This document shows positions 18,301 through 44,425 of a DNA stretch of 64,000 bases, piece by piece. Made by a program: the position numbers and the translations under genes. Position 1 is the first letter of the stretch. Each line of letters begins with the position of its first letter. Under the pieces are notes generated by a model. That model was not told the origin of the DNA, searched no databases, and saw nothing but the letters and a program-made list of their open reading frames with translations. Source of the DNA: Magnetococcales bacterium (GTDB lineage Bacteria; Pseudomonadota; Magnetococcia; Magnetococcales; JADFZT01); assembly GCA_015232395.1 (NCBI GenBank), contig JADFZT010000013.1, forward strand, positions 1,147 to 65,146, read 5' to 3'.

Positions 18301-19998
18301 ACCACCGCCAGCAGCAACGCCTTGACCCCTCTCGATGATGGTGCGAGGCAACACCCCCAGCTGGATGATAACGGCGATGGCATCGGCTCCAATGATCTCG
18401 ATGATGCCGGTTCGGGGGATGGGGCCGTGGCGGAATTTCTCTATCTGGGTGGGGAGGGGTGGCATTTGACCAACTCTGCGGATAACCCTGCTGAAATAAC
18501 CGAGGTTACCCCAACCCTCTATTTGGATGCCGATGAATCCTCCGGCGAGGTGTGGTTCAGGGCCAACGATGATGGGGAGGTCGCTTGGGGCTGGGTGGAG
18601 ATTCGCAAGCCCGGCAAGGAACTGGATGCAGCCGACGGCACCGAAACCGGACAGGTGGATCCGGATCTGCCCTGGGAATTTTTGGATCTGGATGCCGATG
18701 GCCTCTGGCGGCTGACCTACGATGGATTCAGTGAGTCGGGTCAGTATGAGTTGTACTATTATGTGCAGGATCTGGAGACCCTGGACACCTCTCCCATGGT
18801 GCGCTCGGTGGTCTATAAAAATCACACCGATAACGCCTCCCCATCGAGCTTTGATCTCACCGCGCCACCCACCCTTCCCGACACAGTGCGCACGGCGGTG
18901 GCTTTTGAATGGGACGCGGCGAGCGATCCGGACGGGGATGCCCTCTCTTACAATTTGGTGATTGCCGGGGATGTGCAATTTGAGGAAGAGGTCTATCGGC
19001 AGGAGGGGCTGCTCAACCCGGTCACATTTGTGGATGCCTCAGCGGGACTTGAAGATTCCAGTATCTATTTTTGGCGGGTGGAGGCGGTGGATGTATATGG
19101 TGCTGTCACCACCAGCGGCACCCGGGTTTTTCAGACCGACAACACCAACGATCTCCTCGGCACCTTGACCGGCAATATTTATGACGTGGATTCCAACGAG
19201 CCGGTGATTGGTGCTCAAATCGAGGCGGTATCGGCGGATGGTACCACCACTGTCACCACCGAGAGCCAAGCGCCTTATGGCAGTTATCTCCTCTCCCAAA
19301 TGCCCGGGGAGGTGGATTTGGCCATTGTGGCGGATGGTTATTCCGATCAATCCCTGGAAGTGAGCCTGCCGGAGTTGGATGTGGTGCGTTCCAATATTTC
19401 TCTGGAGGCCAGCTGTGATCCCCCCACCACCTTCAGCGATGTCTCTTGCAGGCGCTGGGGCTATTCATCTATCGAAACCCTCGGGGAAAATGCGATTACC
19501 AGTGGTTGTGATTCGGAAAACTATTGCCCGGACAATGAGCTGATGCGCTCGGAGATGGCCATCTTTCTGCTGCGTGGCATCGAAGGATCGAGCTATGCCC
19601 CTCCAACCGCTACCGGGACGGTGTTTGATGATGTGGTTTCCAATTATTGGGCTGGGAGCTATGTAGAAGAGTTTGCAGATCGGGGGATTACCAGTGGTTG
19701 CGATGCTTCCAATTTTTGTCCCAGCCGCAACATCACCCGGGCGGAGATGGCGATCTTCCTGGTGCGCGCCATTTATGGCACGGGTTACGCTCCCTCCGCC
19801 GCTACCGGGACGGTTTATGGGGATATCTCTTCCAGCTACTGGGCGGCGTCTTACATCGAACAACTCGCCTCGGATGGCATCCTGGATGACACCCTGGACA
19901 CCACCCGGGCGTGTGACACAGGCAACTTCTGTCCCAGCTTGACCATCAACCGGGCGGAGATGGCGGTTTGGCTGGTGAAGGCGTTTGAGTTGGAGTGA
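15307..19998 (+). CDS. Secreted multidomain protein: 7 FG-GAP/VCBS repeats, chitobiase-type Ig/FN3 domains, clan-CD (C13 legumain-like) cysteine peptidase, CarboxypepD_reg-like domain, 3 C-terminal SLH domains
   Basis: Signal peptide. Seven repeated DxDGDGxxE motifs (e.g. TGDVTGDGELNIVA, VDVDGDGVKEIFV). His/Cys dyad contexts MVDHGS and VIIGACYSGSFIE. Three ~60-aa SLH-like repeats (F.DV...W....IE.L...GITSGC....FCP....TRAEMA.FLVRA). Confidence 0.8.
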   Translation: MIKSHIVRAISMGLAAVLFHCLTSQALASVTAEPGWRYNRGNLAATFADETEYLAQSNGFNEVWSVSTGGSNISVRTGDVTGDGELNIVAVSTAGLQVFDVEGRQTNQTAALSVTPYPSILEDVDDDGVLEILYGTSSSSDLRIFIHNGDGSLQQEVIRSATSGYDASVRPVAYLGDDRLLVSYTAGYSKDPRGFGVFDLSQGENGEELWYYDIGPVSGEMSVVDTDGDGVMEMTPYLFSAHNGATGYGVSETGSYTSDYWLYAILVNENGEELLSQKLTSDAKGGSQQVLADLDNDGTYGIVATVGHYSSYPGEATIQHLSLDGTLLAEVSMGDDNAPTYAIADLEGDGDQEIIATGRTDDIVHIFDHNLNLLWRSEEGLTSGSLAGVVDVDGDGVKEIFVRDGTTLDLLDGDPASGYTPVWSVTLSESISQVIPGDLDEDGRAEIVVYTSTGSIHYFNTSLPIIDEITDGTFTTSQSIELTCHNSEIPCVAIYYTLDGSDPTTSATRLTYTDGNPIVLTENATLHYVALGDDGYYGDVAVGTFIIDQSPPELTLLEPIEGGIYGVLRYIEGEAEDVGSGIKEIRVLFWDGFDYALGDETIVDWDDEEPTTWPLASDQSAGEDAAWSSWKYSLFGASLQDGSDYLLSVQAEDNVGNITTVGPFAFTIHSGDAYPTEISIALSSNAILPDESVSGTGNLTRVGSTDSDLTGISITLTIRDPDGNLVESQEVTTENLYGHFSIPDLTGFDEEGYYTIEAVFDGNAMLMTSSGSTTLYVGPSAGYAILVEGKIESEEGLESHNLTTNHIYDHFIDRGFKTEDIQYFNYDPSQEGVTALPSKTAIEEAVTVWALEKMTDVAAPLYLVMVDHGSISQFHLDDETITPDELDDWLDTLEAGLVLSNPDALDAERVVIIGACYSGSFIEEVSKSGRVMITSAAEDEVSYKGALVQPDPDEDPNGTPVRVGEFFLEELFGALSQGVTLMEAFITATESTETYTRGTTASSNALTPLDDGARQHPQLDDNGDGIGSNDLDDAGSGDGAVAEFLYLGGEGWHLTNSADNPAEITEVTPTLYLDADESSGEVWFRANDDGEVAWGWVEIRKPGKELDAADGTETGQVDPDLPWEFLDLDADGLWRLTYDGFSESGQYELYYYVQDLETLDTSPMVRSVVYKNHTDNASPSSFDLTAPPTLPDTVRTAVAFEWDAASDPDGDALSYNLVIAGDVQFEEEVYRQEGLLNPVTFVDASAGLEDSSIYFWRVEAVDVYGAVTTSGTRVFQTDNTNDLLGTLTGNIYDVDSNEPVIGAQIEAVSADGTTTVTTESQAPYGSYLLSQMPGEVDLAIVADGYSDQSLEVSLPELDVVRSNISLEASCDPPTTFSDVSCRRWGYSSIETLGENAITSGCDSENYCPDNELMRSEMAIFLLRGIEGSSYAPPTATGTVFDDVVSNYWAGSYVEEFADRGITSGCDASNFCPSRNITRAEMAIFLVRAIYGTGYAPSAATGTVYGDISSSYWAASYIEQLASDGILDDTLDTTRACDTGNFCPSLTINRAEMAVWLVKAFELE

Positions 19999-26807: not shown

Positions 26808-27032
26808 TTATTTAAACAGCCCTGTCCGGGAAACCGAGAATCCCGGAATCACAGCGGAGGTATGGAAGCCGATTAATCGGTAGAGGGGGCAAGATCGGTA
26901 GACTCCGGTATAAAGCATGCTTAGACCGAGCAGCCATAACGTTGGCCTGAAGAGTCTTAGTGCCACGAAAATTAGCGTGATGCCCATCACGATCCGTAGG
27001 AACCGATCCCAACCGCCGACATTGATATTCAT
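26808..27032 (-). CDS. DUF2892 (YgaP-like) small membrane protein
   Basis: MNINVGGWDRFLRIVMGITLIFVAL...YTGVYRSCPLYRLIG is the DUF2892 pattern (NxGxxDRxxR, two TM helices, CP.Y motif). Confidence 0.75.
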   Translation of the reverse strand: MNINVGGWDRFLRIVMGITLIFVALRLFRPTLWLLGLSMLYTGVYRSCPLYRLIGFHTSAVIPGFSVSRTGLFK

Positions 27033-27103
27033 GGTTTGATCTCCTTTGACGCATCAATTCCTGTTGGAAACCCTCTGTGAGTGTTGCCTGACTTTGTCCA
27101 CGA

Positions 27104-27700
27104 TCATCTTCCATTGGTTTTTTCTTCAATGCTTTCAATCGAATGGCAGAGACCATAGGTCACCAGAAACGGTATGTCATACCGTTTGCCTGCCACCTCT
27201 ACTTCATAGATGCCCCGGCGGGTATCCTGCTTCCAAACCACACGATAGTGGGCGAACTGACCCGGTGCGGCAGCAAATTTCAACTTGATTTCACGGGTGA
27301 TTTTGCTGCCGATCTGAAAGCCCAATGTCTTGGATAGTTTTGTCTGTGCCTTGGCTTCCACCAGGGAGAGGAGATTCGCCCCCAGACTGCCGCTGAAATC
27401 CTGACTTCGATCCAACTCCATGGAGGTGTCGGCAGTGCGTGAAAACAGGTGCTCGCTGACCAGGGGTTTCTCACCAAAGCGGTTGTCCAGCGGGACATCT
27501 TCGGTGGAGAGCGCAACGTTATTATCCTCCAGGATCGTTTCTCGGATGATGCGCACGGTAGCGGTTGGGTGTGCCAAGGCGGTTTTTTTCTTTTTCTTGT
27601 GGGGCATTGATTTGGCCGTATGCTGTTTTTTCTCAGCTAAACGCATGATGGCTGCCGCACCAAGGTAGCCAATGGCGATAACGGGAAAAAAGTGAATCAT
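27104..27700 (-). CDS. Hypothetical membrane-anchored protein (198 aa)
   Basis: N-terminal TM helix, a Lys-rich linker (HKKKKKT), then a beta-rich domain. Lies between the CDF-NifX and DUF2892 genes on the same strand. Confidence 0.5.
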   Translation of the reverse strand: MIHFFPVIAIGYLGAAAIMRLAEKKQHTAKSMPHKKKKKTALAHPTATVRIIRETILEDNNVALSTEDVPLDNRFGEKPLVSEHLFSRTADTSMELDRSQDFSGSLGANLLSLVEAKAQTKLSKTLGFQIGSKITREIKLKFAAAPGQFAHYRVVWKQDTRRGIYEVEVAGKRYDIPFLVTYGLCHSIESIEEKTNGR

Positions 27701-27738
27701 GACTGTTCCTCCTGATGGTTGTTCGACCCAATGACCAC

Positions 27739-28998
27739 TTAATAGCCATTTCCCGATGCAGGAAGGTGGAGGGGGAGGGGGCGCACATCCGCCAACGCAT
27801 TGGCTAACGCATCCGCTACCCGCTCATGGGGCGTTTCCCGCACTTCCACTCCAGCATCCGACAACACATAAGAAAGACCTTTACCGTCGAGAGCCGTGCG
27901 TGTCAGTACCAAGTCGACATGATGGTTGACCAACCACTTGCCGAGTTGAATCCCTTTGCCATGTTCCAGGGTTATGAAGGGGTTTGTATGGATGCTTCCC
28001 GCATCTGCATTTCCGCTGGAGTTTTCGATGGTTGAAAGATAAAAAGAGTGAGCATGGCAAAAACAATCCTCCAGCAGACGACCTTCCTCGCTTACCGGTA
28101 TGGCACAAACAATATAATCCGCACTCACAGGCGAGCTGTGGATGAGCACCCGTTCCAGATGTGGAACCTCATTCCGAATGGCTGTTTCCATGCGGCGACA
28201 CGCGGTTTCAGCCTTAACCAGATTGTGGGTACGCAGGATCACGGCTGCTTCCAAAAAACGATACCGGCCGGCATTGCGTCCGGTGACCGACTTGACTTCA
28301 ACCGTCAAGGGGTCCGACTCAAGAATGGATTGAATTTTGTGTAGGGTTTCGGAATCCAGGCTGGCATCCAGCAGTGCCCGCATGGCCTCACGGGACAGCT
28401 CCCAGCCGGTTTGGAGAATAAACACGACAACGAATAGACTGGCCCACCGATCCAAATCCCAGCCGATATATTGCCCGCAAAGGCCCAACAGGACGGCCCC
28501 AGAGGAGAGCGCATGCATGCGAAACTCTTCACCATCGGCAATGATGCTGGGTGAATTGGCCTGTTTACCAATCCGCAACTCATAGGCGCTGAAGAGCACG
28601 GGAATGACAAGCGAAAGGATGACACCGGTCAGAATCGGCCACGTCACCTTAACGCCGTCGCTGGTCGACAGGATGGCTTCCTTGGCTATTTCGTATCCAG
28701 CAAGAAAAATGAGAGCCGCAATGGTCAATGCAACGATATTTTCGACTTTGTACAGACCATAGGGAAAATCAGCCGATTTTTTGCGTGACAGTTTGAGGCC
28801 GGCTATAACGCCCACCGAACCGACCATATCCACGAAATTGTGCAGCGCTTCCGCCATCACAGCGATACTCCCGGAAAACCATCCCAAAACGACATTCAGA
28901 AAAATGAGCAACACGTTCACGCCCATGGACATCCATCCGACACGCTCCAGTGTTTGGTCGGATGGAATCTGATTCGGTTGGGTGGCTGTTTCGGGCAT
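27739..28998 (-). CDS. Cation diffusion facilitator (CDF) transporter fused to a C-terminal NifX/NifB-like (dinitrogenase FeMo-cofactor-binding family) domain
   Basis: CDF motifs (SIAVMAEALHNFVDMVGS, DFPYGLYKVENI, six TM helices). The C-terminal ~110 aa (YIVCAIPVSEEGRLLEDCFCHAHSFYL...HVDLVLTRTALDGKGLSYVLSDAGVEV) resemble the PF02579-type fold. Start moved to the ATG at 28998 (GGAG RBS, MPETATQ...) rather than the longest ORF (29151). Confidence 0.7.
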   Translation of the reverse strand: MPETATQPNQIPSDQTLERVGWMSMGVNVLLIFLNVVLGWFSGSIAVMAEALHNFVDMVGSVGVIAGLKLSRKKSADFPYGLYKVENIVALTIAALIFLAGYEIAKEAILSTSDGVKVTWPILTGVILSLVIPVLFSAYELRIGKQANSPSIIADGEEFRMHALSSGAVLLGLCGQYIGWDLDRWASLFVVVFILQTGWELSREAMRALLDASLDSETLHKIQSILESDPLTVEVKSVTGRNAGRYRFLEAAVILRTHNLVKAETACRRMETAIRNEVPHLERVLIHSSPVSADYIVCAIPVSEEGRLLEDCFCHAHSFYLSTIENSSGNADAGSIHTNPFITLEHGKGIQLGKWLVNHHVDLVLTRTALDGKGLSYVLSDAGVEVRETPHERVADALANALADVRPLPLHLPASGNGY

Positions 28999-29047: not shown

Positions 29048-29064
29048 CGCATAAGCCATGCCAG
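29048..29064 (-). promoter_or_regulatory. Candidate sigma-54 (-24/-12) promoter for the CDF-NifX operon
   Basis: The minus strand reads CTGGCAT-GGCTT-ATGCG (GG and GC correctly spaced), about 50 nt upstream of the ATG at 28998. Confidence 0.5.
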
Positions 29065-29261
29065 CACCTGGAATGATGGATGGTGCTTGAGGTGACAGCG
29101 TGCAAGATGATGAAATATATGTGAAAAATAAAAACATTGATCCTGTGTCAAATGAATCCTGCATGTATGTTGGGTTGACGTACCATCCGTATTTATCTAT
29201 TATTGGCACGCCATTATTTGTGTTTAATGGCCATTTTTGACTCTAAACTGGAAAGAGCCCC

Positions 29262-30626
29262 ATGGCCTTGCGGCAACCCATCCCCTCGCCATCCAAAAAG
29301 GCCATGAAAGATCTGGCCAACATTCACGATCCGGCCATCCTTCTGGATTCAACCTTCCAAATTTTGGCAGCCAACGAGGCCTACCAGGAAGAGCTCGGTG
29401 GCGAAAAATCTCTTGAAGGGTTGCACTGCTATGAGGTTTCACACGGATTTGATCGGCCCTGTGACGAAGCTGGGGAGTGCTGCCCCCTCAAGGCCAGTAT
29501 GGAATCAGAACATGCCGAGCGCATGCTGCATGTGCATCAGTCCACCAAAGGGTGTGAGTTTGTCGATGTCGAGATCCGTCCCATCCGGGACAGGCGCGGC
29601 AAGGCGCGGTATTATTTGGAAATATTGAGGCCAACACTGGTCGCCAGTGCCGAACCAACCCCGGTTGGATTGGTTGGCAAGGCTCCGGCATTCAACCAGA
29701 TGCTGGAACTGGTGCAACGTGTGGCCAAGGAGCAGACAACCGTCCTGCTGCTGGGGGAGTCCGGCACCGGCAAGGAGTTGATCTCCCGGGCCATTCATGA
29801 AGGAAGTGATCGGAGCAAAAAGCCTTTCGTTCCCGTCGAATGCTCCGGGCTTGCGGACAATCTGTTTGAAAGTGAGCTGTTTGGCCATAAAAAGGGGGCC
29901 TTCACCGGGGCCTATTTTGACAAGCCCGGTCTGATTGAAGCAGCACATGGCGGTACGCTGTTTTTGGATGAGATTGGCGAGGTCTCCGCGCAGATTCAGG
30001 TCAAATTGTTGCGCCTGTTGGAAACCCAAACTTTTCGCAGAGTAGGGAGTACGGAGGCTAAATATGTGGATTTCCGCCTGATTTGCGCCACCAATCGCAA
30101 TTTGGCAGAGATGGTCAAAACGGGTCTTTTCCGCAAAGATCTCTATTATCGAATCAGCATATTCCCCATCCAATTGCCCGCGCTTCGTGATCGCCGGGAG
30201 GATATCGGTCTGCTGGCAAACTCCCTGCTGAGACGCTATCCAGGAAAGAAAAATTATTCTCTTTCCAAGGAGGCTTTGAGCTGCCTGGGTGAATACGCTT
30301 TTCCAGGCAATATTCGTGAGCTGCAAAACCTGCTGGAGAGGGCCAGAATTTTAGCCAGTGGCCATCAGCTGAAGCCGATGCATTTTCCGGGTATCTGTGG
30401 GGAAGCCGCGCCAGTTGCATTCAGTCAGGCACACGATTTCCAAAACCACACGACCGATGAAGAGAGCCTTTTTCAAATCAAAGGAGTTCAAACCTTGGAA
30501 GCTGTGGAGGCTCTCTATATGCGCCATATCTTAGCCACCTTTCCCGGCAAGAGAGAGGCGTTGGCAAAAAAGCTGGGCATCAGTCTGCGTACCTTGGTGC
30601 GCAAAATCAAAACCGCCAAGGCGTAA
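29262..30626 (+). CDS. Sigma-54-dependent transcriptional activator (Cys-rich PAS-like sensor, AAA+ domain, Fis-type HTH)
   Basis: Walker [15 protein letters not shown] loop ([15 protein letters not shown]), Walker [10 protein letters not shown]-finger region, C-terminal HTH ([18 protein letters not shown]). The N-terminus contains [22 protein letters not shown]. Confidence 0.9.
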
Positions 30627-31436
30627 CAGAGACCCGTTGGCAGCTCTCTTTTTCAGCCTTCTTTTTTTTGGTTCGCACCTGTTGTCTGCCTGTCGTCTTC
30701 CACCTGAATGGTTATCAGCCTATTGTTTTCCTCCTGAATAGGGTTAAACCGCCTCTGGGTGGCGCTTGGACTCTGTTCCCCTGTCTTGGACAGATCAACA
30801 TAAGCAAGCCCTGCCACCAAAAACAGTGCCATCGTCATCAAAGGCCAAACGGGCTTCCTTGTTCCTGAAAATGCACACATCTGAACGCTCCATTTCTGTG
30901 GTTGCGGCATCAATACAATTTCCAAAACTGAAACTGACCTACCGCATGAACTGAGCCAAGCCACATTTTTGTGTCGTTCGGTGGGTATGTTTATGTTCCA
31001 CCTATTTGAATTAAAACGATAAAATAATATGCGTTCATTTGGGTGGCGTTCAGCTGATGTGGGGTGGCTGTTGTTGATTAAGACAAAATTGGCGCGCCAT
31101 TTTTGGATGTTTATTCCATCAATTGGCTTGTTTGGGAGGCGTGATGCCATGGACCAGCTTTCGCCGTCCGATCATTTCAGGTGTGGTGTCATGGCTTGTT
31201 CTGGGGGAGGCGGAGAGGGTGAAGCATTTGTCTGTCACACGACTCTTTTCAAAATAAGGTCATTGTTGGCTTGTTTGTTCGTGTAGTGGCGCGACAAAAA
31301 TGACCTTTTTCTGGTCTATTGCAAACTGTTTTTCGGGCAAAATAATGTTTAATTCATGGCTAGAATTATATTTTCAGACGTAATTACAATCAAATAGAAC
31401 GATCCCCACCAAAATGGCCGCTCCTGGCCAAATGCC

Positions 31437-31452
31437 TGGCATAACCCTTGCC
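31437..31452 (+). promoter_or_regulatory. Candidate sigma-54 promoter upstream of the 80-aa ORF
   Basis: TGGCAT-AACCC-TTGCC, 60 nt upstream of the ATG at 31512. Confidence 0.55.
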
Positions 31453-31511
31453 GTATCAGTCCAACAGAACAAGAGCTAACCATTCGTGCCGATGGCGGGA
31501 CGGAGGTGTTT

Positions 31512-31754
31512 ATGAAAAGTGGAACTCAACTCGCAACCCCGAAAAATTATCGGCAACTCCGAGCCTATATCCAGGCTGAAATAGAGGCCTTTCGCATCAA
31601 TTCAGAAAAATGGGTTTTGGCGTTGTTCAGACAAATTCCTGCACAACCAACCCCGGAAGCCATTGAGGCCTTGAATCTTTGGATGGATCACTACCTGCCG
31701 AAGCGGACGCTCCGCGAAATGGCATCCAAATTTTATCCACACAGGGATTCATGA
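31512..31754 (+). CDS. Hypothetical small protein (80 aa)
   Basis: ATG with a GGAGG-like RBS, downstream of a sigma-54-type promoter. No family recognised. Confidence 0.45.
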   Translation: MKSGTQLATPKNYRQLRAYIQAEIEAFRINSEKWVLALFRQIPAQPTPEAIEALNLWMDHYLPKRTLREMASKFYPHRDS

Positions 31755-31876
31755 GTCCGGGTCGAAAACAATCTGTCCACACTGAACAGTAACCTGGACA
31801 GTCAAGTCAACAGTGACAGCTGTCTGATAATGGCAAAAGACAGATAAATTTTATGATAACCAACACGTTGCGTTGT

Positions 31877-31892
31877 TGGCACTACTGTTGCA
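31877..31892 (+). promoter_or_regulatory. Consensus sigma-54 promoter upstream of DUF2892-norCBQ...D
   Basis: TGGCAC-TACTG-TTGCA is an exact match to the TGGCAC-N5-TTGCA consensus. It lies 114 nt upstream of the ATG at 32006. Confidence 0.7.
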
Positions 31893-32005: not shown

Positions 32006-32212
32006 ATGCAGGCAAATGTGGGTGGTGTGGATCGACTGTTACGCGTCGTTGTTGGTGTTGTGTTGATTTTACTGGTCTTTATGGGGCCAAAAACCATTTT
32101 TGGGTGGGCCGGTTTGATTCCATTGCTGACCGGCATTTTCAAGTTTTGTCCATTCTATCCTCTCTTTGGGTTGAACACCTGCCCAGCGGACCAACAGGCG
32201 TTGTCTGCCTGA
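32006..32212 (+). CDS. DUF2892 (YgaP-like) small membrane protein
   Basis: MQANVGGVDRLLRVVVGVVLILLVF...LTGIFKFCPFYPLFG. AAGGAGG RBS. Paralogue of 26808-27032. Confidence 0.75.
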   Translation: MQANVGGVDRLLRVVVGVVLILLVFMGPKTIFGWAGLIPLLTGIFKFCPFYPLFGLNTCPADQQALSA

Positions 32213-32239: not shown

Positions 32240-32680
32240 ATGAGTGAAAAGTTTACCAAATCCATGGCCCGTAACATCTTTTATGGCGGCAGCCTGTTTT
32301 TCATCCTGCTCTTTTTGGGGCTGACGTTGGACACCGTACGCAAGCTACCCAAGCGTGACCATCGGGAAAATATCACCCCCCAGGTGGTCCTTGGAAAAAA
32401 AGTTTGGGAGGACAACAACTGTATCGGTTGCCACACCCTGCTCGGTGAAGGGGCCTACTTTGCCCCGGAGTTGGGGAATGTTTATGCCCGTCGGGGCGGA
32501 GACGATGGGGGTAAGGCGTATATCAAGGGGTGGATCGCGGCCATGCCCACGGAAGATCCCGGACGGCGGCAGATGCCCAATTTCAATCTGTCTGAGGAAG
32601 AGCTGGATGCGATAGCGGAATTTTTAAAGTGGTCCGGTGAGATCGACACCGCCGGATGGCCGCCGAACATTGAAGGTTAA
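32240..32680 (+). CDS. norC: Nitric oxide reductase subunit C (membrane-anchored cytochrome c)
   Basis: N-terminal TM anchor, haem-c motif CIGCHTLLGEGAYFAPELG, immediately upstream of norB. Confidence 0.9.
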   Translation: MSEKFTKSMARNIFYGGSLFFILLFLGLTLDTVRKLPKRDHRENITPQVVLGKKVWEDNNCIGCHTLLGEGAYFAPELGNVYARRGGDDGGKAYIKGWIAAMPTEDPGRRQMPNFNLSEEELDAIAEFLKWSGEIDTAGWPPNIEG

Positions 32681-32693
32681 GGGAGACATATAG

Positions 32694-34079
<1,386 letters not shown>

Positions 34080-34154: not shown

Positions 34155-34964
34155 ATGGACATGAAAACCCCAGACCATTTAAACCGGAAAGTGCCGTTCT
34201 ACCAGCCGGTTGGCAACGAAGTGGAACTCTTCGAATATGCCTATCACAACCAACTGCCGTTGCTCATCAAAGGTCCGACTGGTTGTGGCAAAACCCGTTT
34301 TGTCGCGCACATGGCCAGCCGTCTCGCTCGTCCCCTGTTTACCGTTGCCTGCCACGATGATTTGACTGCACCGGATTTGGTGGGGCGTCATCTGATCGGA
34401 GATGGGGCAACCTACTGGAACGATGGTCCCCTGACCCGGGCGGTACGCCAGGGAGGTATCTGCTATCTCGATGAGGTGGTGGAAGCCCGCAAGGATACCA
34501 CCGTCGTGTTACACCCCCTGGCGGATCATCGGCGCAGTCTGCCCGTTGAGCGTACCGGTGAGGAGCTGGAGGCACCGCCGGAATTCATGCTGGTGATCTC
34601 CTATAATCCCGGCTACCAAAATTTACTCAAAGGGTTGAAACCCAGCACCCGACAACGATTCGTCGCTTTGAGTTTTACCTTGCCACCTCCGGATCTCGAA
34701 AAAAAGATTCTCAGCCAGGAAAGCGGTGTGGATAGCGCCTTGGCGGGACGCCTGGTCAATCTGGGCAATGCACTGAGGGGGTTGAAGGATCATGATCTGG
34801 AGGAGGCTGTCAGCACACGGCTGCTGGTCTATGCTGCCACCCTGATCCACGGTGGTTTTTCTCCAGAAGCGGCATGCCGCGCTGCCTTGGCCGAGCCGTT
34901 GAGCGACGACCCTGAAACCGTCGATGCCCTGATGGAGGTGATCCGTGCCACCTTCGGTCGTTGA
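34155..34964 (+). CDS. norQ: NorQ/CbbQ/NirQ-family MoxR AAA+ ATPase
   Basis: Walker A GPTGCGKT, Walker B CYLDEVVEAR, CbbQ-like C-terminus, and position after norB. Confidence 0.9.
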   Translation: MDMKTPDHLNRKVPFYQPVGNEVELFEYAYHNQLPLLIKGPTGCGKTRFVAHMASRLARPLFTVACHDDLTAPDLVGRHLIGDGATYWNDGPLTRAVRQGGICYLDEVVEARKDTTVVLHPLADHRRSLPVERTGEELEAPPEFMLVISYNPGYQNLLKGLKPSTRQRFVALSFTLPPPDLEKKILSQESGVDSALAGRLVNLGNALRGLKDHDLEEAVSTRLLVYAATLIHGGFSPEAACRAALAEPLSDDPETVDALMEVIRATFGR

Positions 34965-35958
34965 TATTCCAGAATCACGATATTCCATCAAATCGATCGC
35001 ACGACCTCTACGGCTCCACCAGCGTTTGCAACGTTGGCGTCTGCTGAGCCGGGGGCTGTTTTTTTTCCTGTTTCTCTGTGCGCCGGTGTTGGACCTGTTT
35101 CGGTTGGATCTGTACGCCGGATCGTTCGTCTTTTTCGGTCGCCACCTCTCCTTGGGCCTGTCTCCATTCCTCAGAGAAGGGGGGATGGATCCGGTGGCGG
35201 CGGGAGTTTCCGTTCTGACCCATGCCATCCTGCCGGTGCTGGCTATCATCGGCTTGGTCGTGGTGGTCTCCTGGCATTTTGGGCGGCTTTATTGCGGTTG
35301 GCTCTGTCCCCATTTTTCAGTGGTGGAAATGTTGAACGGCCTGATGCGACGCACCTTGGGAAAACCCACTTTTTGGGAACGTCGGGATAGCTCTTTTTCT
35401 CCACCAGGCCGTTTGCTCGCCTGGCTCCCGGTAGCCGCTGCCGCGCTGGCCATGGCCTTTATTTGGGCCGTATCCATGCTCACCTATCTTTTGCCGCCGG
35501 AGGTGGTTTTTCAGAATCTGCTTCATGGTCACCCAACCCCCAATCAGTCGCGTTTTTTAGGGGTCGCCACCGGTTTGCTGTTTCTGGATTTTTTATTTTT
35601 TCGCCATCTGTTTTGCCGCTTCGGTTGTGCGGCGGGTCTGTTTCAAAGCCTTGTCTGGATGGGCAATCGCACCGCCCTGACTCCCCTGTTCCAGCGACAG
35701 CGTGCGGTGGTCTGTCAAGAGTGTCCCCAATCCTGCGATACGGTGTGCCCCATGCGCCTGAAACCACGTGGCGGCAAAAATCGAATTGCCACCTGCACCC
35801 AGTGCGGATTGTGCACCCAAGCGTGTGCCCGGGAGCGGCAGGATACACCCGGCAGCCCCCCCCTCGGTTGGCAGCGGGGTGAGAGGGTTTCATCACTTTC
35901 CGGTAGCTATGTTTCACTGCCAGATTCCATCTCTGCCAAGCAGATGGACAGGAGCTGA
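34945..35958 (+). CDS. Membrane-bound polyferredoxin (NapH/FixG/NosR-C-terminal-like 4Fe-4S protein)
   Basis: TM helices with CX3CP-type motifs (YCGWLCPH, CRFGCAAG). Two ferredoxin-type clusters (CQECPQSCDTVCP, CTQCGLCTQAC). Overlaps the norQ stop by 20 nt. Confidence 0.65.
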   Translation: MPPSVVDIPESRYSIKSIARPLRLHQRLQRWRLLSRGLFFFLFLCAPVLDLFRLDLYAGSFVFFGRHLSLGLSPFLREGGMDPVAAGVSVLTHAILPVLAIIGLVVVVSWHFGRLYCGWLCPHFSVVEMLNGLMRRTLGKPTFWERRDSSFSPPGRLLAWLPVAAAALAMAFIWAVSMLTYLLPPEVVFQNLLHGHPTPNQSRFLGVATGLLFLDFLFFRHLFCRFGCAAGLFQSLVWMGNRTALTPLFQRQRAVVCQECPQSCDTVCPMRLKPRGGKNRIATCTQCGLCTQACARERQDTPGSPPLGWQRGERVSSLSGSYVSLPDSISAKQMDRS

Positions 35959-35960
35959 TC

Positions 35961-37802
35961 ATGGAAGAGTGGGTAGGCCTCCAGTGGGACCGTTTGATCA
36001 GCCAACGTTCGACACGGCGTTATCCCCAGGCCCGGGTGAGGCTGGATGAGGTCAAGAGAGCCGTCGGTATTCTTTTTCGGGCGATGGGCGGGGCTGGCGG
36101 TCTGACGGTGGAGGCGGTTGACGAACAGCGTCACCACGCCCGGCGCGATTGGTGGCAGCGCATCGCCGGGAGCCATTTGAAGGCCCCCTGGTTTTGGTGC
36201 GATGACCGGGCGTTGCGTATGCCCGCAGAGCTGGACCTCTTCCCAGAGCGTTTACTCAATCGTGAACTCTACCTGTGGTTGGCCGCTCTGGCCGCTCTGG
36301 GTGAGGAGAGCAGCCAGGGCGATTGGTTTGTTCGCAACCAGGCGCATGTGCAACAGCTTTTGCAAATGTTTCCAGGGTTGCGATCCCGTTATCAACGACT
36401 GCTCAACGCCCATCTGCTGCAGCGACCGGATCCACTGCAACTGGCAGCCCAAGAGCGGGCTATTGAACTGGCTATCCGCACCGCCCTGATCAAACCTGGC
36501 TGTGTGGCGACGCTGCCCATGGGACGCTACCCTCCCTGGCCGGTGCCGTTATGGTCCCATCCCAATCCGCCCATGGGTCCACACGCAGGCGCTTGGAAAA
36601 ACGATGCCGATCTGACCCCAGGTGAACCGTCGGGCCAGAGCCAAAGCGAGACGCACCAAAAAACCAGACAGGCCGTAGGAACCGATGCGCCACAGGAGGA
36701 GGGGGGCTTGATCCTGCACCGCTTTGAATCGATCTTTAGTTGGGCCGATTTTGTCAAAGTGGATCGCTCTACGGACGAAGAGGAGGATTTGGATGCCGCT
36801 CAGAAGAGCGCTGATGATCTGGATAAGCTACATGTGACCCGGGACCAAAAACCGGCTGCCAAACGTTTGCGTTTTGATCTGGATCTCCCCTCGGAGGCCC
36901 AAGATGAGACCCCTCTGGGGGAAGGCCTTCTCGTGCCGGAATGGGACTATCGCAAACGTATCCTACGACCCAATCATTGTCACATTCAGCCCATGGTTGC
37001 AGCCAATGCGCCTGCCTGTGAGCTGCCCGACGCTCTGCAGCGGCCTGCCCATCGGCTGAAAAACCAGTTTGAATCCCTGCGCCTGGGGCGGAGCTGGCTG
37101 CGGCGGCAGCGGGATGGGGCTGAAGTGGATCTGGATGCGTTCCTGGATTTTCAGAGCGAACGCCTGTCGGGGCAAGCCTCGACTGAGGATCGCCTCTATC
37201 GGGATTCTCGGCTCCAGGAGAGAGATCTGGCTTGTCTGCTTTTGGCAGATCTTTCCCTCTCCACCGACACCTGGGTCAACGATGAATTACGGGTGATCGA
37301 CGTGATCCGTGATGGGCTGTTTTTGTTTGCCGAAGCGCTTTCTGCCACCCGGGATTCCTTTGGGCTGTTTGGCTTTTCCTCCAGACGCCGCGAGCACGTC
37401 CGTTTTCATGAGATCAAACCGTTCCACACCCCCTATGGCAGTGATACCCGGGGTCGCATCCAGGCGCTGCGGCCTGGTTTTTACACCCGCATGGGTGCGG
37501 CCATCCGCCATGCTTCGACCATTTTGGAAAAACAACCGGCGCAAAAGCGTCTCTTGCTGCTGTTGACCGACGGCAAGCCCAACGATATCGACCAATATGA
37601 GGGGCGCTATGGTGTTGAGGATACCCGTATGGCGATTTTGGAAGCGAAAAAACAGGGCATACACCCTTTTTGCGTCACCATTGATCGGGATGCGGAGCGT
37701 TATGTCAGCTATCTGTTCGGCCCAGGTGGTTTTGCCCACATTCATCGCGCTTCAGAGCTTCCGCAAAAACTGCCGCAACTATACGCTCGGTTAACGGGAT
37801 AG
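35961..37802 (+). CDS. norD: NorD (von Willebrand factor A domain NOR accessory protein)
   Basis: 613 aa. C-terminal VWA domain with a MIDAS-like LLADLSLST and LLLLTDGKPND. Sits in the nor context with norQ. Confidence 0.85.
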   Translation: MEEWVGLQWDRLISQRSTRRYPQARVRLDEVKRAVGILFRAMGGAGGLTVEAVDEQRHHARRDWWQRIAGSHLKAPWFWCDDRALRMPAELDLFPERLLNRELYLWLAALAALGEESSQGDWFVRNQAHVQQLLQMFPGLRSRYQRLLNAHLLQRPDPLQLAAQERAIELAIRTALIKPGCVATLPMGRYPPWPVPLWSHPNPPMGPHAGAWKNDADLTPGEPSGQSQSETHQKTRQAVGTDAPQEEGGLILHRFESIFSWADFVKVDRSTDEEEDLDAAQKSADDLDKLHVTRDQKPAAKRLRFDLDLPSEAQDETPLGEGLLVPEWDYRKRILRPNHCHIQPMVAANAPACELPDALQRPAHRLKNQFESLRLGRSWLRRQRDGAEVDLDAFLDFQSERLSGQASTEDRLYRDSRLQERDLACLLLADLSLSTDTWVNDELRVIDVIRDGLFLFAEALSATRDSFGLFGFSSRRREHVRFHEIKPFHTPYGSDTRGRIQALRPGFYTRMGAAIRHASTILEKQPAQKRLLLLLTDGKPNDIDQYEGRYGVEDTRMAILEAKKQGIHPFCVTIDRDAERYVSYLFGPGGFAHIHRASELPQKLPQLYARLTG

Positions 37803-37914
37803 GTATCGTCCAACGGCTTGTCCCGGTTTTTGATCAAATCCGTCCAAACTGACTCATGGAATGAGGCAGGTGTCTGCCACAGCTTTTTGGCTTAACAATC
37901 AAGGGATGAAAATA

Positions 37915-38736
37915 ATGAGTGATACGTTTGATATCAATATGGCCCGTACGGTTCATCTGAAGTGGGAATTGGATCTGGAAGCAATGGTCGCGGGAAGAAT
38001 AGAACCAACCACCCTTGAATCCCATGAAAATTGCCATTTGGGCCGCTGGCTCCATTTTGTCGGGGTCAAAAAATATCAGGACATCGAAGCGATTCACCAA
38101 TTGATTGATGTGCATCGTAACTTCCACAAGGTTGCTGACAAAATTGTCTTTGATCTCAAACATTCAAAATGGGGGAGTGTGGAAAAAAACTTGAAGCAGG
38201 TTCAAAGCATCAGCATGGATATTATCTTTATGCTGACTGTGATTGAGTTCAGCTCTTTGGAAAAACAGCGCGGGTTTCATTCTCTACCCAATCCAATACG
38301 AAAACTGATGCGCCAGCTCTTTGAAAAGGAAAATGTATCAAAACAGAACGGCCACCAAGTGCTTGAAGTCAGCCATGCCCGCCTGACCCATGTTCGTTGG
38401 TCCCGGGATCTTCTGGAAGCTTTCCGAAACAGGGGGCGTGATGTTCAATTGAGCCCTGCTGAAACATGTCCTTTGGGCGTCTGGATTCGTACTGTGGGAC
38501 TGCATAAGTTTGGTGAACTGCCGCCTATGCAAAAATTGGATGAGGCGCATAAATCATTTCACCTCAAGGCTGATCAGTCTCTGAACGCTCTGAAAAGAAA
38601 AAATGATCGTCAAGCGGATCAGGCTTATGAAGCCATGCTTCGCTATTCACAGGAAGTGATCTACCTGTTGACGATGATTGAGTATCGGCTGCAAAACAAC
38701 GATGCCATTGCCCCGCCCGTTTCGATTTCAGGGTAA
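37915..38736 (+). CDS. Protein with two tandem CZB (chemoreceptor zinc-binding) domains
   Basis: Two copies of the H..W....(n)..C.LG.W pattern (HLKWELDL...CHLGRWLH and HVRWSRDL...CPLGVWIR), each followed by a helix (VHRNFH / AHKSFH). Start could be 37906 or 37861. Confidence 0.7.
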   Translation: MSDTFDINMARTVHLKWELDLEAMVAGRIEPTTLESHENCHLGRWLHFVGVKKYQDIEAIHQLIDVHRNFHKVADKIVFDLKHSKWGSVEKNLKQVQSISMDIIFMLTVIEFSSLEKQRGFHSLPNPIRKLMRQLFEKENVSKQNGHQVLEVSHARLTHVRWSRDLLEAFRNRGRDVQLSPAETCPLGVWIRTVGLHKFGELPPMQKLDEAHKSFHLKADQSLNALKRKNDRQADQAYEAMLRYSQEVIYLLTMIEYRLQNNDAIAPPVSISG

Positions 38737-38739
38737 CTT

Positions 38740-39747
38740 TCAACAAATTCTGGGCAATGGATCCTCTTCGAGAGGTAGCAGGCGGCGTTCTCCGCCCAGG
38801 GGGGTGACCACGATCACATCGGGTTCGCCCGGTTCCAACTGCCCAATCAAGGCTGCCTGCTTTCCACCGGGCAGTGTTTTCAGGGTGGCGAGGGTGGCTT
38901 CGGCTGTTTCCGGGGCAACCACCGCCACCAGGCGACCTTCGCACGCCAGATAGAGGGGGTCGTAACCGAGAATGTCACACACCGCCCGTACCGGTTCCCG
39001 TATCGGTATTGATTCGCTGACAAGACGCACCGTCCGACCCGTCGCCAGGGCCAACTCATGGGCCACCGTCGCCAGCCCCCCCCGGGTGGGATCCCGCATG
39101 AACCGGACCCCCGGCAGGGTGCGCAGCCTCCGGGTCAGGGGATGAATAGAGGCGGAATCGGAGCGGAGATCCCCCCGCAGGCCAAACGCCTCCCGAGCCA
39201 GCATCACCGCCGTGCCATGGTCGCCCACAGGGCCGCTGACGAGCAGGCGATCACCGGATTGAATACGATCCAGGCCCAGGTTGATTTTTGGGCTACGCAT
39301 GCCAATGCCAGTGGTCGCCAGATAAAGGCCCCCCCCCATGCCATGGGGCACCACCTTGGTATCCCCCGCCACGATAGAGACGCTACACATTTTTGCAGCC
39401 TCGGCCATGGAGGCCACCAGGCGATCCAGCAGGGCATATTCCAACCCCTCTTCGATAAAGGCGTTGAGGGTGAGATAGAGGGGGTCTGCTCCGGCCACAG
39501 CCAAGTCGTTGACCGTGCCGTGTATGGCCAGGGAACCGATATCCCCCCCCGGAAAGAGCAACGGATTGACGGTAAAGCCGTCGGTGGTGATCATCGGTAT
39601 CCCGGAGGTGGGCAGGGGGAGAGCGGCGGCATCCTGATGGACATTCAGCTGGGGGTTGCCCAGGTGTTTGACGAAAATGTCGTCGATCAACTCCCGCATA
39701 AAACGTCCGCCGTTGCCGTGGGCCAGGGTGATGTGTTTATCGATCAT
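38740..39747 (-). CDS. hypE: Hydrogenase maturation protein HypE
   Basis: 335 aa. AIR-synthase-like fold motifs and the diagnostic C-terminal PRIC. Confidence 0.95.
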   Translation of the reverse strand: MIDKHITLAHGNGGRFMRELIDDIFVKHLGNPQLNVHQDAAALPLPTSGIPMITTDGFTVNPLLFPGGDIGSLAIHGTVNDLAVAGADPLYLTLNAFIEEGLEYALLDRLVASMAEAAKMCSVSIVAGDTKVVPHGMGGGLYLATTGIGMRSPKINLGLDRIQSGDRLLVSGPVGDHGTAVMLAREAFGLRGDLRSDSASIHPLTRRLRTLPGVRFMRDPTRGGLATVAHELALATGRTVRLVSESIPIREPVRAVCDILGYDPLYLACEGRLVAVVAPETAEATLATLKTLPGGKQAALIGQLEPGEPDVIVVTPLGGERRLLPLEEDPLPRIC

Positions 39748-42076
39748 GGGGCTCTCTCCTGGATTGGGCTTCGGCTTCGATGATCTGGCCGAAGGCGAGG
39801 GCTGCGTCGTTGCAGGGGATCTTCCGGTGGATCAGCAGTTGAAAGCCGTGTTGTTGGAGCAGATGGGCGGCCTCTTCGGTTAAAATCCGGTTTTGAAAGA
39901 CGCCACCGGTGAGGCCTGCGGTGGTCACCCCATATCGTTTTCGGATGGCCACGGCCTGGTCCACCAGCGCCCGGGCCAGGGTGGCGTGAACCAAGCGGGC
40001 GGATTCAATGGTGGTGCGGGCAGGGGTGGGCCACAGGGCGTGGAGGAGGGGCTGCCAATCGGTGATCAAGAGGCCGCTGGGGTCGGGCTTGAGCGGCAGG
40101 GGGATTCCCTCTTCCCCTTGCCCGGCTTGTTCGGCCAGGGTTTCCAGGTACATGGGGCCTTGGCCCTCAAAACTGGCGGTGGAGAGCACTCCCAGCAGGG
40201 CGGCGGCGGCATCGAACAGGCGGCCAACGGCGCTGGTGGCAGGGGTGTTGAGCTGCCGCTCCCAGGCGTGGCGGGCCAGGGCATGTTGGCTGGGGGTGGT
40301 GAAGGGGGCTCCGGGCCACTCAATCCCCGCTTCCCAGGCGAGCCCCAAAGCACTGCGCCAGGGCGCGCGGGCCGCTTGATCACCTCCCAGGGGTCGGAAG
40401 GGTCTGAACGAAGCCACCCGTTGCCAGCTGCCGGGCATGCCCAATAGTGCTTCTCCCCCCCACAGGGTGCCATCCGCTCCCAGTCCGACCCCATCCCAGG
40501 TAAACACCAGAAGAGGTTCCTCTCCCCAGCCATGCTCCCCAGCCAGGGCCGAGGCGTGGGCGTGGTGATGGAAGATCGGGATGACCGGCAAGTGGCTGCT
40601 TTGGCTCCATCGTGTGGCGTCATAGCCGGGATGGGCGTCACAGGCGATGCGTTGGGGTTCGATGGCATGGAGGCGGCTCAAATCAGCCATCACCTGCTTG
40701 AAAACCAGCATTCCCCGGGGGGTGGAGAGTTCGCCGATGTGGGGGGAGATCACCACCCGATTATCCCAGGCGAGGGCGATGCTGTTTTTCATCTGCCCCC
40801 CCACCCCCAGGAGTGGGGTTTTGACGGCATGGGGCAGGGCCAGTTCCAGGGGGGTGCAGCCGCGCCCCAGGCGCAAGGGTTGGGGGTGATTTTCGATCAC
40901 CCGAAAGAGGGGATCATCCGCCGGGCGGAGAATCGGGCGGTCGTGATGCAAAAATCCTTGAGCCACATGGCCCAAACGTTGGATGACCTCCTGGGAATGT
41001 GTGAGGACCGGTTCACCGCTGATGTTGCCGGAAGTGGCTACCAGAGCGCTGCCGAATGTCTCCAACAGCAGGTGGTGCAGGGGGGCGTAGGGGAGCATCA
41101 GCCCCACTTCCCCAAGAGCCGGGGCGATGGCTCGGGAGAGGGGGGCGTCCGGACGTTTGGGAGCCAGGACGATGGGCCGCATGGGATGGCAGAGTTGCCG
41201 GGCGTGCATGTTGTTCAGGGATGCCAGGGTGCGGGCCTGCTCCAGGCCATCCTCACCCGCCATGGGCACCATCACCGCCAGGGGTTTGTGGGGGCGGGGT
41301 TTGTGGCGGCGCAGGTGGTGGATGGCGGCGTCGTTTTGGGCATCGCACAGAAGGTGATAGCCCCCCACGCCTTTGACCGCCACCACCAGCCCCCCATGCA
41401 ACGCCCTGATACAGGCTGCCAAGGCGGCATCGGAGACCGCTTCGGGGTGGCTTGTGGCGTTTGTGGCGTTTGTGGCGCTTGGGCCGTGCCAATAGAGTTT
41501 GGGGCCACACGCCGGGCAGGCCAGGGGTTGGGCGTGAAAGCGACGATCCAGGGGATTTTCATATTCGGTTCGGCAGTCGGCACAGAGGGGGAAACCGGCC
41601 ATGGCGGTGTGGGGCCGGTCGTAGGGCAGCCGCTCGATGAGGGTATAGCGGGGGCCGCACTGGGTGCAGTTGATAAAGGGATAGCGATAACGCCTGGCCT
41701 GGGGGTCGTGCATTTCGGCCAAGCAGTCGTCACAGGCAAAATAGTCCGGGGGAATGGCGGCCCGGGTGGCGGGGCCTTGGGCGCTTGGGAGAATGATGAA
41801 TTCATCCTGGTGGGGCTCCCACTCCGCCTCCATGATGGACTCCAACCGGGGCTGGGCCAGGGGCGGGGGAGTGGCCAGCAATTCCCGGTTGAAGGCGGTC
41901 AGGGAGTGGGGAGCCCCCTGAATAAAAATATCCACGCGACCGGCTACGTTGCGCACCCAGCCCGTGAGGCTGTGCCCATGGGCCAGGCGATAGACAAAGG
42001 GCCGGAAACCCACCCCCTGCACACCCCCGCTCAGGGTGATGCGTTGGGCTTGGCGTTTCTGGTCACCGGCTGCCAT
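39737..42076 (-). CDS. hypF: Carbamoyltransferase HypF
   Basis: Acylphosphatase domain (GGVQGVGFRPFVYRLA), two Zn-finger CxxC pairs (CDDCLAE...CTQCGPRY; CADCRTE...CPACGP), and YrdC-like and Kae1-like domains. The start chosen here (MAAGDQKRQ...) gives a 14-nt overlap with hypD. The longest ORF starts at 42157. Confidence 0.9.
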   Translation of the reverse strand: MAAGDQKRQAQRITLSGGVQGVGFRPFVYRLAHGHSLTGWVRNVAGRVDIFIQGAPHSLTAFNRELLATPPPLAQPRLESIMEAEWEPHQDEFIILPSAQGPATRAAIPPDYFACDDCLAEMHDPQARRYRYPFINCTQCGPRYTLIERLPYDRPHTAMAGFPLCADCRTEYENPLDRRFHAQPLACPACGPKLYWHGPSATNATNATSHPEAVSDAALAACIRALHGGLVVAVKGVGGYHLLCDAQNDAAIHHLRRHKPRPHKPLAVMVPMAGEDGLEQARTLASLNNMHARQLCHPMRPIVLAPKRPDAPLSRAIAPALGEVGLMLPYAPLHHLLLETFGSALVATSGNISGEPVLTHSQEVIQRLGHVAQGFLHHDRPILRPADDPLFRVIENHPQPLRLGRGCTPLELALPHAVKTPLLGVGGQMKNSIALAWDNRVVISPHIGELSTPRGMLVFKQVMADLSRLHAIEPQRIACDAHPGYDATRWSQSSHLPVIPIFHHHAHASALAGEHGWGEEPLLVFTWDGVGLGADGTLWGGEALLGMPGSWQRVASFRPFRPLGGDQAARAPWRSALGLAWEAGIEWPGAPFTTPSQHALARHAWERQLNTPATSAVGRLFDAAAALLGVLSTASFEGQGPMYLETLAEQAGQGEEGIPLPLKPDPSGLLITDWQPLLHALWPTPARTTIESARLVHATLARALVDQAVAIRKRYGVTTAGLTGGVFQNRILTEEAAHLLQQHGFQLLIHRKIPCNDAALAFGQIIEAEAQSRREPHDR

Positions 42077-43885: not shown

Positions 43886-43908
43886 GGTGCTTCTCCCTTG
43901 GTTTGCTC

Positions 43909-44051
43909 AGAGGCTGTTTGGTGATTGCGTCCTGCTTGCCGCGGCGGCGTTAAAATCGTGCTCAAATCCTCACGTACTGGAGTACGCTCCGGTTTTCCGC
44001 GCGATTTTGCCTTGCCGGGGCGGCGCAATCCACAATCACCAAACAGCCTCT
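43909..44051. repeat. 143-bp MITE-like palindromic element filling the hypA-hypB intergenic region
   Basis: 19-bp perfect terminal inverted repeats AGAGGCTGTTTGGTGATTG (43909-43927) and CAATCACCAAACAGCCTCT (44033-44051). Further internal complementarity and a central CGTAC..GTACG palindrome. A shorter related copy lies at 58062-58122. Confidence 0.75.
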
Positions 44052-44410: not shown

Positions 44411-44425
44411 GACCCATCCTTTCTC

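Follow-up and report, generated by a model that had tools for sequence, protein, structure and literature searches.

Sigma-54-dependent genes for the detoxification of nitric oxide (NO) are classically driven by NorR, an activator that senses NO with a nonheme iron GAF domain, and cNOR operons are normally under FNR/DNR/NnrR- or NsrR-type control. Here, we describe a locus in which NO reductase genes adjoin a sigma-54 activator of a different kind. It lies in a 64,000-nucleotide stretch of a Magnetococcales genome (GenBank assembly GCA_015232395.1, contig JADFZT010000013.1, positions 1,147 to 65,146 of the forward strand), which we call the window and whose coordinates are used throughout. The activator gene (29262-30626, plus strand; 454 amino acids, aa) encodes a PAS-like regulatory (R) domain, an AAA+ domain with a GAFTGA motif, and a Fis-type helix-turn-helix (HTH). 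A first-pass annotation had proposed that this protein takes the place of NorR and senses NO, redox state, or a metal through a Cys/His-ligated cofactor. We find that its sequence places it in the FisR family and, with moderate confidence, we favor the explanation that it is a sulfide- or persulfide-responsive FisR paralog that has been rewired to the nor genes and drives the sigma-54 promoters surrounding it.

The closest described system is FisR of Cupriavidus pinatubonensis JMP134 (Li et al. 2017, Mol Microbiol 105:373). Two later papers describe a tetrasulfide between Cys53 and Cys64 of this protein, formed on reaction with sulfane sulfur, and report that H2O2, organic peroxides, and GSSG do not give rise to such multisulfur links (PMC9495516, PMC8614764); another states that three R-domain cysteines of Cupriavidus FisR sense reactive sulfur species (PMC12754779). 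We took the cysteine numbering from papers citing Li et al. and from the ortholog in Cupriavidus metallidurans CH34, through which the JMP134 protein was compared. A second described member, FisR of Acinetobacter baumannii (A1S_1707), is a sigma-54 activator whose gene is divergent from an operon that sulfide induces. In this bacterium, cydAB likewise goes up with sulfide, and the FisR protein has no regulatory-domain cysteines (PMC7315123).

The activator and its sensor domain

Pfam models agree with the domains recognized in the first-pass annotation. PAS_4 covers residues 19 to 123, Sigma54_activat 137 to 304, AAA_lid_14 309 to 382, and HTH_8 411 to 450, with GAFTGA at residues 211 to 216. 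The Cys/His cluster noticed in the PAS-like N terminus is likewise present: the motif spans residues 55 to 76 (29424-29489, plus strand) and contains the conserved C56, H61, C67, and C74, with H90 and H92 further on. The protein is 100% identical to one from a Magnetococcales metagenome-assembled genome (MAG), and a sigma-70-like TTGACG-17-TATTAT precedes its gene.

Like NorR of Escherichia coli and Ralstonia eutropha, the activator combines a sigma-54 AAA+ domain bearing GAFTGA with a Fis-type HTH, and it adjoins NO-detoxification genes with a predicted sigma-54-type promoter. In contrast, its sensor is a PAS_4 domain rather than a GAF domain with nonheme iron, and its putative target is norCBQD, an operon of the cNOR type, in place of norVW, hmp, or norAB. 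The earlier reading that a NorR-type sensor is lacking was borne out. Pfam returned no GAF match in the activator, none of the NCBIfam equivalog models attained its cutoff, and the NCBIfam model for NorR aligned with residues 133 to 448 only, which is the AAA+/HTH part, at 289.9 bits against a cutoff of 476.

The C. metallidurans CH34 homolog, found on the second chromosome by tblastn of the plasmid and chromid records, has cysteines at 53, 64, and 71 when numbered from the start MDRPTT. Its gene is divergent from a Lactamase_B (PDO type)-Pyr_redox_2 (SQR type)-MFS unit and is followed by TauE. The window activator is 49% identical to this protein from end to end (E = 4e-140), and C56, C67, and C74 correspond to C53, C64, and C71 with no gap across the motif. 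Because the cysteine region aligns without gaps and the full-length identity reaches 49%, the sensor domain is, by sequence, the FisR regulatory domain and not an uncharacterized one. The idea of an unprecedented sensor for NO, redox state, or metal is therefore not supported: the domain belongs to a characterized sensor family with an unrelated published ligand, which the papers cited above give as sulfane sulfur.

Further features shared with Cupriavidus FisR are the domain order, the three sensor cysteines, an LHxH motif, predicted sigma-54-type target promoters, and candidate GNCA-N4-TGNC dyads, one of which L008, like most loci of the family, has in its divergent intergenic region (L numbers are our labels for loci). 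The two differ in that the window activator has an additional cysteine at position 73 and in that its neighbors are an 80-aa gene, norCBQD, and an operon headed by a CDF transporter gene, with no pdo-sqr in the 64 kb. By domain order, regulatory-domain cysteines, and full-length homology, the activator is a FisR-family member; the hallmark sqr/pdo neighbors are missing. Unlike A. baumannii FisR, it retains all three regulatory-domain cysteines.

In an alignment of 32 full-length homologs, C56, H61, C74, H90, and H92 were invariant and C67 was at least 90% conserved. C73 is the first residue of a compact "CC" in the motif. This pair is not conserved across the family, as most of the aligned homologs have S, E, N, Q, K, D, A, or T at this position; C73 is present in the window protein, in both aligned relatives of more than 66% identity (75% and 69%), and in four more distant homologs, including that of Magnetococcus marinus. 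A four-cysteine Fe-S cluster like that of NreB-type PAS sensors was considered and rejected because C73 is not conserved, which leaves only three conserved cysteines. An AlphaFold2 model of residues 1 to 134 (pLDDT 89, pTM 0.83) places the motif in the helical part of a PAS fold. A Foldseek search with this model returned generic PAS/LOV folds only (TM 0.54 to 0.66), with no informative cofactor analog, and no solved structure matched the sensor domain when searched by sequence.

These residues bear on a different account of the ligand, in which the Cys/His PAS domain of this clade would hold a metal or Fe-S center, or use thiol nitrosation, and would thereby sense NO, replace NorR, and drive nor. 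C56, H61, C67, C74, H90, and H92, invariant or nearly so, would suit a metal site in the PAS pocket, and the extra C73 of the window protein recurs in the two closest aligned relatives and the four more distant homologs. Yet C73 varies even among relatives that adjoin homologs of the 80-aa gene and genes for CZB (chemoreceptor zinc-binding) proteins, and the only characterized member with these cysteines senses sulfane sulfur. NO sensing is kept alive by the invariant histidines together with the nor adjacency, but it must compete with a characterized ligand of the same domain, and we regard it as unlikely. A broader version, in which Cys3/His3 (C56, H61, C67, C74, H90, H92) would form a metal-thiolate center throughout the family and the Magnetococcales clade would sense NO, or NO plus reactive sulfur, strikes us as quite unlikely. 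If it were true, the activator would be a non-GAF functional equivalent of NorR on a sigma-54-dependent cNOR operon.

Sigma-54-type promoters around the activator

Three sigma-54-type sites surround the activator, and each is followed, 50 to 115 nucleotides (nt) downstream, by a start codon that has a ribosome-binding site. One, TGGCAT-aaccc-TTGCC (TGGCATAACCCTTGCC, TGGCATaacccTTGCC; 31437-31452, plus strand), precedes the ATG at 31512 of the 80-aa gene (31512-31754, plus strand), whose product belongs to what we call the orf82 family and resembles Mmc1_1664 of M. marinus. Another, TGGCAC-tactg-TTGCA (TGGCACTACTGTTGCA, TGGCACtactgTTGCA; 31877-31892, plus strand), precedes the ATG at 32006 of the DUF2892 gene with which the nor operon begins. 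The last, TGGCAT-ggctt-ATGCG (TGGCATGGCTTATGCG, TGGCATggcttATGCG; 29063 to 29048, minus strand), precedes the minus-strand ATG at 28998 of the CDF gene. All three had been pointed out in the first-pass annotation. The two plus-strand sites are present exactly as described there, and the minus-strand site exists too but is 1 nt shorter than had been claimed.

Across the window, matches to the bare sigma-54 consensus with one mismatch occurred at chance level (6 found versus 5.9 expected), and we therefore used matrices trained on other genomes. The first was built from 23 promoters, of which 19 precede divergently oriented targets of homologous activators and 4 precede homologs of the 80-aa gene. 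Scored with it, the three sites took ranks 1, 2, and 3 among approximately 128,000 window positions (scores of 18.2, 16.9, and 15.8), and shuffled sequence yielded 0.9 sites with a score of at least 14. With a matrix drawn from beta- and gammaproteobacterial loci only, which includes no Magnetococcales sites, the sites at 31437 and 31877 stayed at ranks 1 and 2. The promoter of the 80-aa gene ranked first with both matrices, and that of the nor operon ranked second or third. The three best sigma-54 sites of the 64 kb all fall within 2.9 kb of the activator, and among the window open reading frames (ORFs) scanned there was no other sigma-54 activator and no other nor regulator, a GAF-type NorR included. 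In this respect, the matrix scan upheld what had been read from the letters.

Sigma-54-type sites also occur at orthologous loci. One precedes the 80-aa gene or its homolog in the window, L005, L006, L007, and L011, and the TGGCAY-N5-ATGCG form found at the CDF operon also precedes the orf82 homologs of L006, L007, and L011. In L005, the nor operon has a sigma-54-type site (TGGCACGGAATTCGCC) that ranks second in the 21-kb locus, so that the orf82 and nor promoters hold ranks 1 and 2.

Two further sigma-54-like sites were seen elsewhere in the window. At 19768-19791 (plus strand), one of them (TGGCACGGGTTACGCT) is overlapped by a dyad (GCCATTTATGGC) inside the 3' end of a gene for a 1,563-aa SLH/FG-GAP protein. 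The other (AGGCATGAATTTTGCA, 54517-54532, plus strand) has a dyad (GGCATTTTTGAC, 54630-54641) approximately 100 bp downstream. Neither site precedes a plus-strand ORF of at least 90 aa for several kilobases.

Candidate binding sites

Among 46 distinct divergent intergenic regions of beta- and gammaproteobacterial FisR-like loci (L003 to L089), nearly all contain a dyad of the form GNCA-W4-TGNC. It occurs in one or two copies, rarely more, with a spacing of mostly 21 to 22 bp, and mostly lies 100 to 180 bp upstream of a TGGCAY-N5-YTGC promoter where such a promoter was found. No published description of this family-wide dyad was found in the literature that we examined. For the regions upstream of orf82, a search for shared palindromes with exact half-sites was uninformative, and mismatches were allowed at the second and eleventh positions. 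GNCA-N4-TGNC dyads were found upstream of orf82 homologs in all six of six loci, three of which (L001, L006, and L007) have them in pairs. Paired dyads are 33 to 34 bp apart in the Magnetococcales (window, L001, L006, and L007), in contrast to the mostly 21 to 22 bp of the beta/gamma loci.

Within the window, GNCAWWWWTGNC was found 8 times (1.9 expected), and the relevant copies start at 31259, 31293, 31082, and 29230. Two dyads (GTCATTGTTGGC and GACAAAAATGAC; 31259-31304) that are candidate activator binding sites lie 34 bp apart, and their distances to the downstream -24 element of the 80-aa gene are 178 and 144 bp. The dyad GCCATTTTTGAC (29230-29241; matrix score of 12.7) precedes both the CDF -24 element, by 167 to 178 bp, and the activator ATG, by 21 bp, and the activator of L005 is preceded by a similar sequence (GCCGGTATTGAC). 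The distances at the 80-aa gene and at the CDF operon are inside the range of the family. For the nor operon, the window offers one weak candidate (GTCAACAGTGAC, 31806-31817) upstream of the -24 element, and in L005 a dyad (GACATTCTTGCC) lies 68 bp upstream of the nor -24 element. We also considered whether the window dyads could be NorR boxes, which reportedly read GT-N7-AC (Tucker et al. 2010). Their core, GTCA-N4-TGAC, instead has the form GT-N8-AC, and the idea was rejected for this reason.

Gene neighborhoods in Magnetococcales and in the family

On the contigs examined, close orthologs of the activator are 64 to 75% identical to it. The locus with 75% identity, L005, contains DUF2892-norC-norB-norQ-Fer4_5-norD, the activator, a small membrane ORF on the opposite strand, and an 86-aa gene. 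The gene order of the window nor operon is kept there, at 55 to 89% identity, and the operon still adjoins the activator despite rearrangement. The adjacency of activator and nor that had caught attention in the window is thus also found with the closest ortholog, although the genes are arranged differently. L006 and L007 each have a homolog of the 80-aa gene divergent from the activator, and this homolog is followed by a CZB protein (L006, 5851-6672; L007, 8570-9391) and, in L006, next by a PhsA-like enzyme. L011 has a homolog of the 80-aa gene and then a CZB-containing chemoreceptor (95-2362). M. marinus MC-1 likewise has its homolog of that gene, Mmc1_1664, in divergent orientation to the activator.

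Members of the orf82 family were located at 9478-9780 in L001, 11995-12255 in L005, 6720-7034 in L006, approximately 9391-9699 in L007, and 2652-2897 in L011. They have a conserved core with W34, F39, W57, and L62. A profile search recovered only hypothetical Magnetococcales proteins, always encoded beside a FisR-like activator; profile searches of Pfam and the PDB found no relative, and a homology search with the single 80-aa protein gave no match.

The nor genes of the window sit exactly between the 80-aa gene and a gene for a protein with two CZB domains, a position suggestive of insertion into an orf82-CZB unit that was there before. In an alternative that we judge rather unlikely, the activator controls the 80-aa gene only (along with CZB genes in relatives). 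The nor and CDF promoters would then serve another enhancer-binding protein, encoded elsewhere, or be nonfunctional, and the adjacency would be a by-product of the nor insertion. CZB genes directly follow orf82 in L006, L007, and L011, just where nor lies in the window. The dyad evidence for nor is weak, and the CDF operon (26808-28998) has no counterpart adjoining the activator in any other locus. These observations would all fit such a history. L005 is hard to reconcile with it, because there the nor operon flanks the activator on the opposite side yet retains a top-ranking sigma-54 site, whose dyad is at 68 bp, compared with 71 bp in the window. The clustering of the three best sigma-54 sites of the 64 kb near the activator also argues for a wider role.

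To characterize the family as a whole, we searched with residues 1 to 132 using HMMER, which retrieved 2,421 cluster representatives at an E value of 0.001 or less. The motif C-x4-H-x(4-6)-C-x(5-7)-CP is present in 132 of the best 150 representatives, many of them large multi-PAS kinases, and in at least 591 species genomes when one genome per species was scanned. The kinases that carry the module in the form C-x4-H-x5-C-x6-CP are 500 to 1,700 aa long, and some have two copies.

Neighbors were counted by tblastn with reference proteins in 80 species loci plus the other loci of this study. PDO was found at 39 loci, Cupriavidus-type SQR at 23, a second SQR-like flavoprotein at 21, CydA at 23, and a Tll0287-like protein at 8. 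Across the loci searched, nor genes beside a FisR-like activator were confined to the window and one other Magnetococcales MAG. When 57 divergent nearest neighbors were classified with Pfam, they included Lactamase_B (18), cytochrome bd (7), FixG/CcoG-like (6), Mo-oxidoreductase (2), and Tll0287 (2) proteins, with AhpC/peroxiredoxin as one family. None of the 25 families listed for these 57 neighbors is an NO-detoxification family. Other Magnetococcales paralogs adjoin PhsA-like molybdoenzymes with Fer4_11 and DmsC partners. The theme of the family neighborhood is sulfide and sulfur chemistry plus sulfide-insensitive respiration, and the cytochrome bd neighbors match the response of A. baumannii cydAB to sulfide.

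These neighbors also bear on the NO-sensing account introduced above. It gains from the nor adjacency in two genomes, where strong sigma-54-type promoters are present, and from the result that the scanned ORFs of the window include neither a GAF-type NorR nor another nor regulator. Cytochrome bd, a frequent neighbor, resists NO and sulfide alike, and the M. marinus homolog abuts a gene for a Lactamase_B/ODP di-iron protein. However, that gene is convergent and not cotranscribed, the commonest neighbors (PDO and SQR) are sulfide specific, and the families listed for the 57 divergent neighbors do not extend to NO detoxification.

The CZB proteins raise a further alternative, since the CZB domain works as a Zn-Cys redox switch responsive to HOCl. 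The activator might be a general sensor of thiol oxidants (H2O2, HOCl, or disulfide stress) that induces protective functions, the CZB proteins among them. Its predicted sensing is cysteine based, it is linked to CZB proteins, and AhpC/peroxiredoxin is found among the family neighbors. Sulfide enzymes nevertheless dominate the neighborhood, and the papers cited above deny induction of such multisulfur links by H2O2, organic peroxides, and GSSG. We give this alternative little credence.

Other genes of the window

The nor operon, assigned with Pfam and NCBIfam, begins with a gene for a DUF2892/YgaP-like transmembrane protein (32006-32212), followed by norC (32240-32680), norB (32694-34079), and norQ (34155-34964). 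A gene for a NapH/CcoG-like Fer4_5 membrane ferredoxin (34945-35958), which overlaps norQ by 20 nt and is kept in L005, separates norQ from norD (35961-37802). The gene for the protein with two CZB domains (37861-38736; Pfam) directly follows norD; all of these genes are on the plus strand. In E. coli, YgaP is a rhodanese of the membrane, encoded in an operon that responds to sulfide. Another DUF2892 homolog occurs about 1 kb upstream of the FisR-like gene, on the opposite strand, in the gammaproteobacterial locus L078.

On the minus strand, the CDF transporter gene (27739-28998; Pfam and NCBIfam) encodes a NifX-like C terminus. This NifX/FeMo-cofactor-binding-like domain is below the Pfam cutoff (23.8 versus 26.3 bits), and the transporter is nearest to MamB-type CDFs by NCBIfam, at a score far under the equivalog cutoff. 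A gene for a 198-aa protein with no assigned function (27104-27700, minus strand) and, in last place, a gene for a second DUF2892/YgaP-like transmembrane paralog (26808-27032, minus strand) complete the operon.

The gap between the activator and the 80-aa gene (30627-31505) is unusually long, at approximately 880 bp, and contains a small minus-strand ORF, three dyads, and an AT-rich stretch. A 75-aa predicted membrane protein that starts with MCAFSGTRKPVWP (30653-30880, minus strand) is encoded convergently with the activator; L005 has an ORF at the corresponding place (11381-11563, minus strand), with 42% identity over the N-terminal 36 residues. Unrelated to the present finding, the window also contains an IS240-type DDE transposase gene (3274-4047, plus strand) and a hypE-hypF-hypD-hypB cluster that adjoins the gene for the small subunit of a NiFe hydrogenase (38740-47166). 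In addition to the hyp maturation genes and the hydrogenase small subunit, the other scanned ORFs encode hybrid histidine kinases, CheR, and a topoisomerase.

Discussion

We propose that, at rest, the PAS-like domain would hold the AAA+ ATPase off. By analogy with Cupriavidus FisR, sulfane sulfur would bridge C56 and C67, the equivalents of C53 and C64, with C74 assisting. The released ATPase would then assemble on the dyads and open the sigma-54 holoenzyme at the surrounding promoters. The Magnetococcales-specific 80-aa gene would be the first-ranked target, followed by the DUF2892-norCBQ-napH-like-norD(-CZB) operon, with its own promoter at 31877, and then by the divergent CDF-NifX/198-aa/DUF2892 operon. 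Read-through from the 80-aa gene into nor is possible as well, because no terminator-like structure was found between that gene and the nor promoter.

The strength of this proposal differs among the three putative targets. Predicted direct control of the 80-aa gene is well supported, since a sigma-54-type site precedes that gene in the window and its homologs in L005, L006, L007, and L011. Direct control of the nor operon, which we infer from promoter rank and from L005, is moderately supported. Direct control of the CDF operon, as read from a predicted promoter, is weakly supported. The coupling of NO reduction to the CDF-NifX operon, as first envisaged, comes down to a single site in this genome. 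What endures of the original interpretation are the promoters, the lack of a NorR-type GAF domain, and the nor adjacency; the novel sensor and the CDF coupling do not.

Several observations weigh against the explanation that we favor. No PDO or SQR homolog was found by tblastn in the 64-kb window, so the hallmark FisR targets are absent from it. The nor adjacency is seen in two related genomes only, and the orthologs of L006, L007, L011, and M. marinus have orf82/CZB without nor. Only a single dyad accompanies the nor promoter; its spacer is non-AT, and its distance of 71 bp is outside the usual 100 to 180 bp. The CDF site ranks second with the matrix that includes Magnetococcales sites but falls outside the top six without them, as it depends on the lineage-specific ATGCG variant of the -12 element. 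In a scan of the window with a dyad matrix from other genomes, sites in coding regions (23337, 38137, and 10094) scored above the promoter dyads. Dyads are enriched overall but are unable to assign targets alone; because the best scores fall in coding regions, they support the model without proving it and do not single out the locus. With respect to the signal, A. baumannii FisR works without the cysteines in question, which tempers any statement on the sensing chemistry of the FisR family as a whole. Finally, the three invariant histidines beside the cysteines hint at a metal site, and the published FisR mechanism leaves them unexplained.

Freshwater Magnetococcales have been described as sulfide oxidizers with partial denitrification (PMC6783814), which makes a link from sulfur to nor physiologically reasonable. 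We found nothing specific in the literature on a sigma-54 regulator of cydAB or on sulfide control of nor in Magnetococcales. In a sulfide oxidizer at the oxic-anoxic interface, a sulfide- or persulfide-responsive FisR paralog would make the presence of reduced sulfur the cue for NO reduction.

If this is correct, the NO reductase genes of sulfide-oxidizing magnetotactic cocci would be wired via sigma-54 to a sensor of reduced sulfur, and an electron-donor signal would be tied directly to a step of denitrification. For the family, FisR is known from one detailed study, and its cysteine-bearing sensor occurs here in at least 591 species genomes and approximately 2,400 protein clusters, in several architectures. 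The range of FisR neighbors is broadened to cytochrome bd, Tll0287-like and FixG-like proteins, PhsA-like molybdenum enzymes, nor, and CZB proteins, with a common upstream dyad. With three invariant histidines alongside the cysteines, the sensing chemistry of the family deserves a second look.

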